Of a stretch of 7,441 nt of DNA, positions 1,384 through 6,367 are shown piece by piece (position 1 is the first letter of the stretch; each line of letters starts with the position of its first letter). A program made the position numbers and the translations under genes. Under the pieces are notes generated by a model that was not told the DNA's origin, did no database searches, and saw nothing but the letters and a program-made list of their open reading frames with translations. Source of the stretch: a virus (Duplodnaviria; Heunggongvirae; Uroviricota; Caudoviricetes); the IMG/VR virus record IMGVR_UViG_2713896784_000023; one strand, 5' to 3'.

Positions 1384-1918
1384 ACAGGTTTGTGAGGCTC
1401 TGGATGCCTGGGTATGTCGACCAGGAATGACACAGGAGCAGGCGACGATATTAATCACGGAAGCATTCTGGGCTCTGAAAGAACGCCCGAACATCGATGT
1501 TCAACGCATCACGTTTAATGATGGCGAGGTTGATCAACGGGCACTGGGCGTTAACCGGGTGAAGATATTCGAACGCTGGAAAGCTATCGACACCAGGGAT
1601 AAGCGGAAAAAATTCACGGCGCTGATTCCGGCAATTATGGAGGCTATCCGAATTAGTGATTTCAGGTTGTATCGTGAGATCAGTGATGGAAAAAGCATTA
1701 CGTACATGATCGCCGGATTAAACAAAGAATATGGCGATGTGGTGGAGTCCGGGCTGCTTTTTGCGGATCCATCTGTTGTGGAACGTGAGACTGACGAGCT
1801 TATAGAAAAAGCTATTGCTTTCAAGCATGCGTATCGTCAGCAGTATCAATATTACTTTGCAGATAAACAAATATCTGTCTGGGGTTCGTATGAGTATCGA
1901 TGCACTACGATGGGCTAA
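1367..1918 (+). CDS. YdaT-family protein (candidate CII functional analogue), 183 aa
   Basis: Sits directly after the Cro-like gene, overlapping it by 17 nt, as in racR-ydaS-ydaT and CP-933P cI-cro-ydaT switches; N-terminus MKITPEQV... and an internal ...KFTALIPAIMEAI... segment resemble YdaT as I recall it. Family call is tentative. Confidence 0.55.
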   Translation: MKITPEQVCEALDAWVCRPGMTQEQATILITEAFWALKERPNIDVQRITFNDGEVDQRALGVNRVKIFERWKAIDTRDKRKKFTALIPAIMEAIRISDFRLYREISDGKSITYMIAGLNKEYGDVVESGLLFADPSVVERETDELIEKAIAFKHAYRQQYQYYFADKQISVWGSYEYRCTTMG

Positions 1919-2930
1919 AAAGGTGAAAACCGGCAGTTCATCCAGTAAGTCAGTATTGACCTGGCTTGCTGATATGTGCGGTGCCGATTTGTGTGCATAC
2001 CCGTCTGTATCTGCACTGGCAGAAGTAACGGAACTGAACAAAAAGACTGTGCAGGACAGCTTACGACACCTGATGGAGATTGGGTTAATTGTTGATACCG
2101 GTGAGAGAAAAGGCAGAACAAAGCAAATTGTGGTGTACCGACTTATCGGTGTAGAAGAAAGTGTTGCCGAGCCTGAATACACCCAAAAACGGGTGTCTTT
2201 AAAGGTGGGTAAAATTGGTGCTGTTAATAAAAACAGTACCGAAAACGGTTATGTTTCAGCACAAAAGAGCCCCAAAAACGGAACTCTTTGTTGCATGGAA
2301 AATAACCAAAGACACCCAAATTTTCCATCAAAGACACCCAAAAACGGATCACGGAACCCAAAGGAACCCAAAGATCTAAACCCCACACATAACGCACGCG
2401 AGAGTGCTCCGATCAGTGAGCAGGAAGTTTTGTCGTTACAGGCAGCCCCCCATGTATTCCTGGATGGCCTGAGCGAACCCATCGGAAAATTTCCGATGAC
2501 CGATAGCTGGTATCCGTCACGGGATTTTCGACGACGGGCTGCGTTGTGGGGGATGGCTTTGCCGGAGACAGAATTTACACCTGCTGAACTTACCGCATTC
2601 CGGGACTACTGGGCAGCGGAGGGGAAAGTGTTTACGCAGATTCAGTGGGAGCAGAAATTCGCCCGTCACGTAAATCACGTCAGGGCGCAGGTTAAACCAG
2701 TCAGCAAGGGGGTAAACCATGCAGCAGCACCAGGTGGCACCGCATCACGGGCAGTTCAGGAAATTCGGGCAGCACGTGAGCAGTGGGAACGTGAAAACGG
2801 ATTTATCAGCGACGGAAACGGCCTGGAAGCTGTGGGAACTCATGGGGGAGGTTTATTCGAACCGCTGGACCCAGAAGAACGGGGCCGCACCTTCGAAGCT
2901 CTGGATTGCACAGATTGGCGCGATGACTGA
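1890..2930 (+). CDS. Replication initiator (lambda O functional analogue): N-terminal HTH replication domain plus C-terminal DnaT-like domain, 346 aa
   Basis: ATG at 1890 (MSIDALRWAKKV...). N-terminal winged-helix replication-protein domain (VLTWLADMCGADLCAYPSVSALAEVTELNKKTVQDSLRHLMEIGLI); low-complexity linker encoded by the iteron region; C-terminal IGKFPMTDSWYPSRDFRRRAALWGMALPETEFTPAELTAFRDYWAAEGKVFTQIQWEQKFARH matches the E. coli primosomal DnaT C-terminal domain as I recall it. The frame stays open to 2930, overlapping the next gene. Confidence 0.8.
   Translation: MSIDALRWAKKVKTGSSSSKSVLTWLADMCGADLCAYPSVSALAEVTELNKKTVQDSLRHLMEIGLIVDTGERKGRTKQIVVYRLIGVEESVAEPEYTQKRVSLKVGKIGAVNKNSTENGYVSAQKSPKNGTLCCMENNQRHPNFPSKTPKNGSRNPKEPKDLNPTHNARESAPISEQEVLSLQAAPHVFLDGLSEPIGKFPMTDSWYPSRDFRRRAALWGMALPETEFTPAELTAFRDYWAAEGKVFTQIQWEQKFARHVNHVRAQVKPVSKGVNHAAAPGGTASRAVQEIRAAREQWERENGFISDGNGLEAVGTHGGGLFEPLDPEERGRTFEALDCTDWRDD
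2181..2390. repeat. Iteron-like direct repeat cluster, candidate replication origin inside the initiator gene
   Basis: ACCCAAAAACGG-type repeats at 2181-2193, 2238-2248 (variant), 2270-2281 and 2336-2347; CAAAGACACCCAAA at 2307-2320 and 2329-2342; tandem GGAACCCAAAG at 2353-2363 and 2363-2373. Several copies are spaced by about 10, 20 or 22 bp. The encoded peptide here is low-complexity linker (PKNGTLCCMENNQRHPNFPSKTPKNGSRNPKEPKDLNP). Confidence 0.5.
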
Positions 2931-3384
2931 GCAGCAAATCCGGCAGGTCTGCCGCCAGTGCATGGACCGCTGCCGGGCGGGTGAAACATGGCCTCCGGAC
3001 CTGGCTGAGTTTGTGGCGCTGATTTCGGAAAGCGGGGCCAATCCATTTGGCCTGACGGTGGATGCTGTGATGGAGGAGTATCGCCGCTGGCGTAATGAGT
3101 CCTGGCGATATAACGGAAGCGACAAATATCCGTGGCCTCAGCCTGTGCTGTATCACATTTGCCTCGAGATGCGTTCAAAGGGGATTGAACGCCAGATGAC
3201 CGAAGGGGAATTAAAACGGCTTGCAGAACGGCAGCTGACGAAATGGGCAAAGCATGTTAGTAACGGCCTGAGCGTTCCGCCAGTACGGCGACAACTGGCG
3301 GCACCAAAACGCCCGTTGGGACCAACGCCAATTGAGTTGCTGAAACAGGAGTATGAACGCCGGAAAGCGGCTGGTTTTGTCTGA
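2719..3384 (+). CDS. Replication protein P-like helicase loader, 221 aa
   Basis: ATG at 2719 with AAGGGGG Shine-Dalgarno at 2706-2712. The protein aligns by eye with lambda P along most of its length (for example [15 protein letters not shown] against PFLPSPGQFVAWCREE, and a YPWP...[16 protein letters not shown] segment against lambda YPWKS...ALTDAELRRKAADEL). An alternative start at ATG 2842 cannot be excluded. Confidence 0.75.
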
Positions 3385-3418
3385 TTTGAGAAGTAATTTT
3401 TATCCGGAGGAAATTTTA

Positions 3419-4057
3419 ATGGGAACCGTATTGCATGCACTGAAAGCGATGGGTAAAGCCAATTCTGTTGAACTGGCGGCGCGGCTTGATATCAGCCGTG
3501 AAGAAGTTCTCAACGAACTGTGGGAACTCAAAAAAAATGGCGTTGTTGATAAAACGGGTCACACCTGGTTTCTGGCTGTCGAAGGTGAATCCGGGGTAAC
3601 CGAAGGGCAGGCACTACAACCTGAAGCGCCGGATGTGGTAACCGAAGAGGTCNNNNNNNNNNNNNNNNNNNNNNNNNNNNNNNNNNNNNNNNNNNNNNNN
3701 NNTCGTTACTGCATGCCGGGCGATAATTTACCAGCAGAGCCGAAAGCCGCGCTGGTAACGGAAAATGATGGTAAAGCCTTTCCTCAGCCAGCAGGTGTTG
3801 CGTTACCAGTCCGGGAAGCGGAAACACAGGAAGAAATGAAAACAGAAATCGTGGAAGACATTGTGAAGTTACAGCCATCGGTCACCGAAACGAAAGCAGA
3901 TGACCTGATTCTACCATCGCTGCATGTGGCTAACCGAGAGCTGCGCCGGGCGAAAAGTGATGTGCAGAAGTGGGGGCGAGTCTGTGCCGCTCTGCGGGAA
4001 CTGAACAAACACAGGGATATTCTCCGGGATATTACCGCCACCAGAGAGCAGCAGTGA
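3419..4057 (+). CDS. Hypothetical phage protein with N-terminal winged-helix-like domain, about 212 aa, interrupted by the N-run 3653-3702
   Basis: ATG at 3419 preceded by GGAGG at 3407-3411; the track's upstream extension from 3353 is less likely. N-terminal [45 protein letters not shown] looks like a MarR-type winged helix; acidic middle; C-terminal basic helix. Reading frame is continuous across the N-run. Occupies the ren/nin position after P. Confidence 0.6.
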
Positions 4058-5348: not shown

Positions 5349-5469
5349 AGAAAAGCCCCAGTTAACATTACGCGTCTTGCAGGACGCTTAACATTAATCT
5401 GAGGCCAATTTCATGCTTTGCACATGTAGGTTAGCCTCTTACGTGCCGAAAGGCAAGGAGAAGCAGGCT

Positions 5470-5583
5470 ATGAAGCAGCAAANNNNNNNNNNNNNNNNNN
5501 NNNNNNNNNNNNNNNNNNNNNNNNNNNNNNNNACCGGCCAGACGGAGGTCGCTGTCTTCACAGCTTACGAACCTGAGGAGTAA
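5470..5583 (+). CDS. Candidate small ORF, about 37 aa (MKQQ...TGQTEVAVFTAYEPEE), interrupted by the N-run 5483-5532
   Basis: Consensus AAGGAG Shine-Dalgarno at 5455-5460, 9 nt before ATG 5470; the frame is continuous across the 50-N mask and stops at TAA 5581-5583; a 9-bp GAAA-tetraloop hairpin follows at 5591-5612. An in-frame upstream ATG at 5413 with GAGG would give about 56 aa. Coding status unproven. Confidence 0.3.
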   Translation: MKQQXXXXXXXXXXXXXXXXXTGQTEVAVFTAYEPEE

Positions 5584-5685: not shown

Positions 5686-6003
5686 TCAGGATATTACCTG
5701 GATCCCGTTTTTCTCGACAACTGAAAGAAGCCGAAGAGCTGCACCTCCCGGGCGTTTCACTCCTCGTTCCCAGTCTGATATCAGGTTTTTACTGACGTTG
5801 AGGTATCTGGCAAAAACAGGTTGAGACAGATGCTCTCGTTCTCGCAGTGCACGGATCCTTTCCGGAGACATTACCGGCGCAGGCTGAAGACAAGTTTCAT
5901 CGAATTCGCGCATAGTTTGTTTTGTGATTGCACCGATATCATGGAGTGACTCCATCATTTCATGTACAGATGCAAGTGCATCACTGCGGTAATTTTTACT
6001 CAT
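5686..6003 (-). CDS. XRE-family HTH antitoxin (HigA-like), 105 aa
   Basis: C-terminal Cro/C1-type HTH (LREREHLSQPVFARYLNVSKNLISDWERGVKRPGGAALRLL) with an N-terminal extension, as in antitoxins partnered with RelE-like toxins; ATG at 6003-6001 overlaps the upstream toxin stop by 8 nt; GGAGG 6 nt upstream. Confidence 0.85.
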   Translation of the reverse strand: MSKNYRSDALASVHEMMESLHDIGAITKQTMREFDETCLQPAPVMSPERIRALREREHLSQPVFARYLNVSKNLISDWERGVKRPGGAALRLLSVVEKNGIQVIS

Positions 6004-6367
6004 TGGGTACCTCCGTGAACTGGCCTTGTTGAATCAATTGTGCCAGCTGTTCATCAGTAAGATTGAGGACATGGGGAGCGGCTTTTCGAAAAGCATTTTC
6101 CTCTATAGCAGTGATATTCTCTCGTTCATTCTTTGCGTATGCGTAGATGAAAAAGGCTTTTTCTGCAACGCGGTAAAAAATTATTGTCCGGTAACCGCCT
6201 GATTTTCCGCCACCACTTCGGGCTAATCTTTGTTTAATGACACCACTACCCAAATTTGCGGATATGATCCCCTTATCGGCCTGCTCCACGATTTTGCGCA
6301 GCGATTTATCGGAAATCCGATGTTTTCGGGCGAAACGTTCAAACCAGGCGTTTTTGAAAATTCGCAT
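5996..6367 (-). CDS. RelE/ParE-superfamily type II toxin (HigB-like, toxin-first operon), 123 aa
   Basis: Motifs FKNAWFERFARKHRI, LGSGVIKQRLAR and GKSGGYRTIIFYR...FIYAYAKNERENI match the RelE-like toxin family that pairs with XRE antitoxins; GAGG Shine-Dalgarno upstream of ATG 6367-6365; orientation opposite to flanking phage genes. Confidence 0.85.
   Translation of the reverse strand: MRIFKNAWFERFARKHRISDKSLRKIVEQADKGIISANLGSGVIKQRLARSGGGKSGGYRTIIFYRVAEKAFFIYAYAKNERENITAIEENAFRKAAPHVLNLTDEQLAQLIQQGQFTEVPNE

Follow-up and report, generated by a model that had tools for sequence, protein, structure and literature searches.

The segment considered here joins two replication genes in a stretch of viral DNA of 7,441 nucleotides (nt), referred to below as the window (Caudoviricetes; IMG/VR record IMGVR_UViG_2713896784_000023). 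Of 5426 complete E. coli genomes, 1284 contain the lambdoid prophage (Rac/PPompW-like) to which the window belongs, and the locus represents the early-right operon of such a phage, where a replication initiator and a helicase loader take the positions of O and P. The O-like initiator gene occupies positions 1890-2930 (plus strand, as do all genes and signals described below), begins with ATG 1890, ends with TGA 2928-2930 and encodes 346 amino acids (aa); RefSeq WP_000020565.1 has the same coordinates. The P-like helicase loader gene, in its full form, extends from ATG 2719-2721 to position 3384 and encodes 221 aa. Both genes share 212 nt (2719-2930), where P is read in the +1 frame relative to O, and the same bases serve as the final 70 codons of the initiator and the initial 70 codons of the loader. 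The initial annotation of this DNA had offered three explanations for such an arrangement, i.e., a genuine long dual-coding overlap with the P start at 2719, a frameshift in the O gene, or a later start of P. Comparative data from 28 diverged loci bear out the first, and it is very probable that 2719-2930 is a genuine, conserved dual-coding segment that joins a lambda-type initiator/helicase-loader pair.

The gene order given by RefSeq for this locus is repressor, Cro-like protein, YdaT-family protein, "DnaT-like ssDNA-binding domain-containing protein", "replication protein P" and DUF1627. The region 1800-3450 was found with 100% identity in many closed E. coli genomes, and at least 80% of the O/P gene pair is present in 906 complete E. 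coli genomes, among them those of O157:H7 and further Shiga-toxin strains.

The initiator and loader proteins

The initiator is predicted to consist of a winged-helix-turn-helix (HTH)-like N-terminal domain, a disordered linker, a DnaT-like domain and a tail of 79 residues. For the N-terminal domain AlphaFold2 (AF2) gives a helical fold with short strands (predicted local distance difference test, pLDDT, ~70-85), and the score with the HTH_36 profile, 20.9 bits, stays below the cut-off of 25. The DnaT-like domain (residues 201-267, positions 2490-2690), which is the last single-coding part of O, is recognized by Pfam PF17948 DnaT (1.4e-16, 60.4 bits vs cut-off 25) and is matched by the structures of E. 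coli DnaT (E = 5.5e-19). The initial annotation had described the O-like frame as open to 2930, about 80 codons past this domain, and indeed 79 codons follow residue 267; there is no stop in the O frame before 2928, therefore translation must continue through the tail. The first part of the overlap encodes the tail motif TASRAVQxIRxAR and an AF2 helix at O residues 287-302 (2748-2795), the second part encodes the recurrent motif HGGxLFEPLDxEER...DxxDWxDD, and residues 306-346 are predicted to be disordered (pLDDT <50). The profiles of PHROG 1032 and 1408 end short of the tail's end.

The tail in the window ends with ...LDCTDWRDD (2907-2915), lambda O ends with LTNTDWIYGVDL, and the lambda-type tails end with ...NTDWI.GV. 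The common TDW may be a docking motif or may be due to chance, and it is too short to claim homology.

The product of the second gene is classified as a P-like helicase loader by a profile match above the curated threshold, namely Pfam PF06992 Phage_lambda_P (4.3e-16, 59.6 bits vs cut-off 26, residues 56-188). It is further matched by PHROG 109 "P-like helicase loader" (E = 1.2e-62), where residues 19-220 align with profile positions 22-235/236; among NCBIfam models none matched the loader. The earlier statement that the protein aligns with lambda P from near its start holds for PHROG 109, from residue 19, and does not hold for the start itself, since the Pfam match begins at residue 56 and the direct phmmer alignment to lambda P only at residue 72. 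The phmmer alignment thus cannot settle the start of P, and therefore profiles, structure prediction and comparative DNA analysis were used. In the AF2 model of the 221-aa form residues 1-27 are disordered (pLDDT <50), three helices follow at 29-46, 48-54 and 60-67 (pLDDT ~83), and helical blocks are found at 29-104, 114-181 and 204-217. The top Foldseek matches of this model are the lambda P chains in DnaB-P complexes (E = 7e-6, 194-215 aligned columns), with low TM-scores (0.4-0.5) because the domains are flexibly linked. In lambda P, domain I (residues 1-29) is an intrinsically disordered "lasso" and domain II covers residues ~30-119 (PMC12661323). The modeled layout of the loader is of the lambda P type, with lassos at both ends, the N-terminal one disordered, and two helical domains between them.

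Conservation of the overlap in diverged loci

The comparison was based on 38 loci fetched from one-genome-per-species contigs, 28 of which, with near-duplicates removed, have the architecture of the window; they come from enterobacteria of the genera Escherichia, Citrobacter, Enterobacter, Klebsiella, Salmonella, Pectobacterium, Serratia, Rouxiella, Erwinia, Buttiauxella, Samsonia, Limnobaculum and other genera. The 28 loci form 14 clusters at >30% and 24 clusters at >20% nucleotide distance, and between clusters third positions differ at 64% of sites, therefore synonymous sites are nearly independent between clusters. The overlap is kept in all of them, with a length of 149-224 nt (median 212), and P is always in the O+1 frame. 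Measured from the codon of W36, a conserved tryptophan of the loader, the initiator open reading frame (ORF) ends 68-140 nt further 3′ in 28/28 loci and at +104 or +107 nt in 23/28; in L021 and L036 the O stop comes ~35 nt earlier. The alignment of homologues, suggested initially as a way to see where O ends and P begins, showed that the O tail and a Shine-Dalgarno (SD) sequence with ATG at the position of 2719 are retained in every locus of the set. Among the homologues examined, the only ones ending at 2700-2720 were those that carry another tail/P cassette.

Several other loci were met in this search. In Leclercia adecarboxylata NCTC13032 (L033, ~2438-2689) a one-base frameshift makes the P frame run into the O tail frame (...AWHLWQVMGGNILEPVDAEEWGRTFGALDSPDRFDD*), and this copy is either a pseudogene or an assembly error. 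Two Erwinia loci (L027 and L035, ~2470-3120) contain intact P-like genes that lack an upstream initiator and directly adjoin chromosomal genes (ttcA-like, PTS transporter). These genes keep the W..W motif but resemble prophage remnants, or may encode domesticated loaders, and were therefore given little weight. The ydaU/ydaV pair of the K-12 Rac prophage, considered as a control in the expectation that a DnaT-type initiator would be paired there with another loader, was uninformative, as YdaU is of the DUF1376 type and YdaV is an ATPase.

Selection in the two reading frames

In the single-coding flanks stop codons are met off-frame once per 19.5 codons (O frame in the P-only region) and once per 23.6 codons (P frame in the O-only region), and across the overlap both frames are open in 28/28 loci. 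When synonymous codons were resampled with the other protein fixed, the geometric-mean chance of an open frame per locus was 0.03 for O and 0.22 for P; the products over the 24 clusters are 1e-36 (O open) and 8e-16 (P open).

The constraint differs between the two parts of the overlap. In part 1 (2719-2823) the O frame is dominant, and P residues 1-35 are variable and predicted to be disordered, whereas in part 2 (2824-2930) the P frame is dominant, encoding the predicted first helices of domain II, and O contributes an acidic tail, predicted to be disordered, with the stop at 2928-2930. Since helices and disorder alternate between the halves in the AF2 models, the ordered part of each protein overlies a disordered part of the other. 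Synonymous variation, proposed at the outset as a check of the overlap, was analyzed in a deep set, where synonymous-site differences were scored between identical-residue pairs. From 0.55 in the DnaT region, the O-synonymous differences decrease to 0.49 over positions 2718-2822 (p = 0.02) and to 0.19 over positions 2823-2927 (p = 4e-11). The matched control for O-frame identity was the corresponding -1 frame where P alone is encoded, at equal P identity (0.56). In 2722-2823 the O-frame identity is well above this control (p = 6e-8); in 2824-2925 it is 0.35 vs 0.27 (p = 0.006-0.02), the BLOSUM score also being above control, and the frequency of O-frame stops in part 2 is 0.002 vs 0.051. In a close set of 55 distinct E. 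coli sequences there are 22 and 17 variants per 100 nt in the overlap halves vs 41 and 34 in the flanks; O-synonymous/P-nonsynonymous variants prevail in part 1 (11 vs 5) and P-synonymous/O-nonsynonymous variants in part 2 (12 vs 4), where P-synonymous polymorphism is halved (12 per 104 nt vs 111 per 451 nt). Taken at the level of sequence comparison, these patterns indicate purifying selection in both frames within the overlap, strong for P in part 2 but weak in part 1, and strong for O in part 1 but modest, with a weak signal, in part 2.

This argument is weakest with respect to selection on the final ~35 residues of the tail. One may ask if the O tail has a function only in its first half, the distal ~35 O codons (2824-2927) being a functionless run-on, left free of O stops by chance in a sequence that is shaped by the P frame. 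We consider this unlikely. Chance would leave the O frame open in ~3% of resampling trials at a given locus, whereas all 28 loci have it open, and the earlier stops of L021 and L036 are set against a stop that lies within a narrow window. The run-on would agree with the predicted disorder of these residues and with the PHROG 1032 and 1408 profiles, which end before them, but a motif of the form GG.L.EPLD.EE and D..DW recurs there, and identity and BLOSUM score exceed those of the control frame. Finally, the P-synonymous differences, which in the deep set are not significantly reduced in this part, stand against the halved P-synonymous polymorphism of the E. coli sequences.

Start site of the loader gene

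The start of the loader gene consists of the SD sequence AAGGGGG (2706-2712), embedded in the O codons K-G-V, and ATG 2719-2721, both at the place where a strong site had been read in the initial annotation; the P frame is closed by a TAA (2713-2715) just 5′ of this ATG. The duplex with the anti-SD has an energy of -11.8 kcal/mol for the 2719 start vs -4.2 for ATG 2842. An ATG is found 25-36 codons 5′ of W36 in 28/28 loci, preceded by an SD of ~-5 to -12.6 kcal/mol, which is strong in nearly all of them. Written in O codons, the site has the form GGA GGT nnn nnn NAT Gnn, and in most of the 28 loci GGAGGT is separated from the ATG by a conserved spacing of 7 nt. As NAT codon, AAT is used in 13, CAT in 12, TAT in 2 and GAT in 1 (Asn, His, Tyr and Asp, respectively), and the synonymous NAC is used in 0/28; as the residue varies and NAC is never used, conservation concerns the "AT" of the loader ATG and not the amino acid of the initiator. 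No significant RNA structure was detected around the P ribosome-binding site (z = +1.0, i.e., less structured than shuffled sequences). Initiation of the loader is therefore probably direct, with no melting needed, and a structure-dependent coupling of the two genes is unsupported.

The start of the loader is given inconsistently across databases. RefSeq, by the annotation pipeline PGAP, places the start of "replication protein P" WP_000139476.1 (2923-3384, 153 aa) at an internal ATG (M69, 2923-2925), which leaves an overlap of 8 nt; in the DDBJ records of PPompW/Stx2a phages (L002, 2663-3085) the loader begins at an ATG still 3′ of that of RefSeq and has 140 aa, and elsewhere it has 177-181 or 221-223 aa. 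The 177-181-aa entries start at another internal ATG (M42, 2842-2844), and the overlap in this case is 89 nt, as had been calculated in the initial annotation.

It was thus considered that the overlap is short, with P starting either at ATG 2923, by termination-reinitiation, or at ATG 2842, and with the upstream ORF open by chance. We regard this as improbable. ATG 2923 abuts the O stop and forms with it ATGACTGA, a classical coupling arrangement, and it is the start called by PGAP in E. coli genomes, but the M69 position is occupied by Met or Leu among homologues and is not a conserved start. The junction is not of the lambda type with a coupled stop and start, as the conserved P start lies 210 nt 5′ of the O stop. 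M42, the start in many database entries, is nearly invariant among homologues, however it is absent in L022, its SD is nearly always weaker, and usually much weaker, than the upstream one, and W36, W39 and the predicted helix 29-46 lie, wholly or in part, 5′ of it; for these reasons the later start at 2842, put forward initially, is not favoured. Homologues at ~50% identity conserve W36, W39, M42, W50, K53, N54, G55, P58 and W62, all of them 5′ of the RefSeq start, and the Pfam and PHROG profiles align 5′ of M69, that of PHROG 109 also 5′ of M42. The poor conservation of P residues 1-35 would suit a shorter protein, but the SD and ATG at the 2719 position are present throughout the set, with NAT never NAC, and in no lineage is the P frame interrupted, although the chance of an open frame is ~0.22 in each.

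Comparative and predicted evidence thus favours the 221-aa form of the loader. Since the conserved N-terminus, the structure prediction and the profiles extend upstream, the 153-aa and 180-aa forms would represent truncated proteins. Lambda P without residues 9-86 is inactive (PMC3640518), and it is this region that the short forms would lose, with domain I missing and domain II incomplete. The late start in RefSeq hides the overlap and removes conserved residues, predicted to fold, which match domains I and II of lambda P.

Programmed +1 frameshifting that yields an O-P fusion would use the same frame relation, P being in the +1 frame of O, and PHROG 15931 and a few database proteins resemble such fusions, but we find it very improbable, as P has its own conserved SD and ATG, and the fusions examined proved to be a deletion fusion (P0084) and multi-frame, pseudogene-like ORFs (P0108) with different junctions; on these grounds, with no search made for a conserved shift site, this candidate was rejected. 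The profile phrog_15931 (482 positions, with no function assigned there) matches the C-terminal half of the initiator together with the whole loader and was apparently built on fused ORFs. Lastly, although long overlaps in bacterial annotation are often mispredictions and the Leclercia copy does carry a frameshift, the initial suspicion of a sequencing or assembly indel, or of a recent true frameshift, near 2690-2720 that extended the O frame has next to nothing left in its favour and is excluded by the complete identity in many closed E. coli genomes and by the tail and stop position, which are kept in the 28 diverged loci, where initiators reach the same end and not 2700-2720, and in all protein homologues examined.

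Tail and loader as a recombination cassette

The tail of the initiator is exchanged together with the loader. In phage TL-2011b (L124, 2006-3578) the same DnaT domain is found, with 80% nt identity up to ~2685, which is a mosaic breakpoint just 5′ of the loader ribosome-binding site; past it TL-2011b continues with a tail resembling that of lambda O (LDWNNTDWIEGV) and with a P of the lambda type, the two genes overlapping by only 29 nt. In lambda, L037 and L039 the NTDWI.GV tail is paired with the lambda-type P N-terminus, and L040 and L041 have a third tail/P pair. Conversely, the tail and loader of the window type stand behind cores that are not of the DnaT type (L019, L020, L021, L022, L026 and L031), namely Phage_rep_O, HTH_36, DUF1376 and cores with no Pfam match. 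Within E. coli, unrelated N-terminal halves carry the DnaT-plus-tail half at 85-89% identity. On account of these comparisons the type of the tail tracks the type of the loader, and not the initiator core, which points to where the specificity between initiator and loader resides.

Genetic studies established that the C-terminal part of lambda O is the part that docks P. A fragment of lambda O comprising residues 156-299 was used as the P-interacting fragment (PMC12661323). From the co-variation of tail and loader, viewed together with lambda genetics, we infer that the tail may be the docking element of the initiator for its cognate loader. A broader proposal, that we put forward tentatively and hold to be somewhat less probable than its contrary, is that the second frame of the loader gene carries, over its first 70 codons, a docking tail for whatever initiator lies upstream. 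If so, any core that recombines in-frame just 5′ of the loader ribosome-binding site would gain a matching tail. The interacting surfaces, i.e., the tail and the N-terminal domain of the loader, would then be inseparable by recombination, and the overlap would act as a built-in compatibility device for mosaic replication modules.

Model of the initiator-loader junction

The conserved dual-coding segment can be described by the following model. The initiator would be translated through to TGA 2930, and translation of the loader would begin inside the initiator gene, at a separate SD (2706-2712) and ATG 2719, and proceed in the +1 frame, both steps being suggested by sequence comparison. In part 1 a conserved helix of the initiator would be written over a variable, disordered N-terminus of the loader, and in part 2 the helices of loader domain II would be written over the acidic tail of the initiator. 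Tail and loader move as one recombination cassette, which is found behind several unrelated cores, and a tail written inside the loader gene may keep the partners matched during module exchange. Speculatively, the initiation of P on mRNA that is crossed by O-translating ribosomes may also tie the synthesis of the loader to that of the initiator.

A number of observations weigh against this model and should be kept in view. The argument for translation of both products is a comparative one, and the putative docking role of the tail is deduced from co-variation and lambda genetics. The confidence of AF2 for the O tail is low. Residues 1-35 of P are poorly conserved (identity 0.29), their frame being nonetheless open, and the depression of O-synonymous differences over them is small (0.49 vs 0.55). 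The P-synonymous differences in part 2, 0.54 vs 0.58 in the P-only region, are not significantly lowered (p = 0.16), therefore selection on the amino acids of the last 35 tail residues is weak. In the close set, the density of variants in the flanks may be inflated by recombinant segments.

Other features of the operon

Within the linker-coding region of the initiator gene there are iteron-like direct repeats (2175-2372, listed without strand), comprising four copies of the CCCAAAAACGG type, three of CAAAGACACCCAAA and two of GGAACCCAAA. By analogy with the ori iterons located within lambda O, these repeats are probably a putative replication origin.

Two more small out-of-frame overlaps occur in the same operon, that of the Cro-like and YdaT-like genes (17 nt, 1367-1383) and that of the YdaT-like and initiator genes (29 nt, 1890-1918). 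The window contains three runs of 50 N (319-368, 3653-3702 and 5483-5532), one of them within the DUF1627 gene 3′ of the loader; the O/P overlap is untouched. Further downstream, by the RefSeq annotation of the identical locus, a pair of a RelE/ParE-type toxin and an HTH antitoxin and a hokD-type toxin are encoded (5686-6367 and ~5413-5583).

Comparison with known systems

The protein families are known and the module is lambda O/P-like, but the O/P junction differs from that of lambda. A full-text literature search, with incomplete coverage of the literature, found no description of this overlap. The window resembles the lambda O/P module in gene order, in the operon position, after cro and the genes at the cII position, and in the putative origin iterons within the initiator gene; the two loaders belong to one family (PF06992, PHROG 109), and the four-part layout of lambda P is also predicted for the loader of the window. 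In lambda, however, the overlap has 4 nt (ATGA) and P is in the O+2 frame, whereas here it has 212 nt and P is in the O+1 frame. The initiator core also differs, as it is of the HTH plus DnaT-like type and not of the lambda O type, and domain II of the loader is of the W..W...NRW..KNG type, in contrast to F..L...FPAS...ENGITTMEQV in lambda P.

The closest counterpart of the tail in lambda is O′, a minor product reported by Yates et al. (1977), according to PMC3640518, which arises by read-through of the O stop and reaches into gene P. Inspection of lambda confirmed 34 open codons in the O frame beyond the UGA. In both cases the initiator polypeptide continues, without a change of frame, into the beginning of P; yet O′ depends on stop-codon read-through, is minor and has no established role, while the tail of the window would be constitutive, being present on every initiator molecule, and is conserved. 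Moreover, the frame of the tail relative to P is +1 in lambda and -1 here.

The gp12/gp13 pair of TL-2011b has in common with the window the DnaT-like domain and the operon position, and differs from it past the breakpoint in its LDWNNTDWIEGV tail, lambda-type P and 29-nt overlap, so that it constitutes a natural control with the other cassette.

Out-of-frame overlapping gene pairs are known from phages, i.e., lambda Rz/Rz1, phiX174 and MS2, where two proteins are made from one stretch and ordered regions are encoded over disordered ones. Rz1 is wholly embedded, and the products of Rz/Rz1 form the lysis spanin, whereas the overlap described here lies where one replication gene ends and the following one begins. 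Long out-of-frame overlaps, when met in the genomes of bacteria or tailed phages, are commonly set aside as mispredictions. The O/P segment, which is kept across many genera and in which the constraint is cleanly split between the frames, is well suited as a natural example for the study of two proteins encoded in one sequence.

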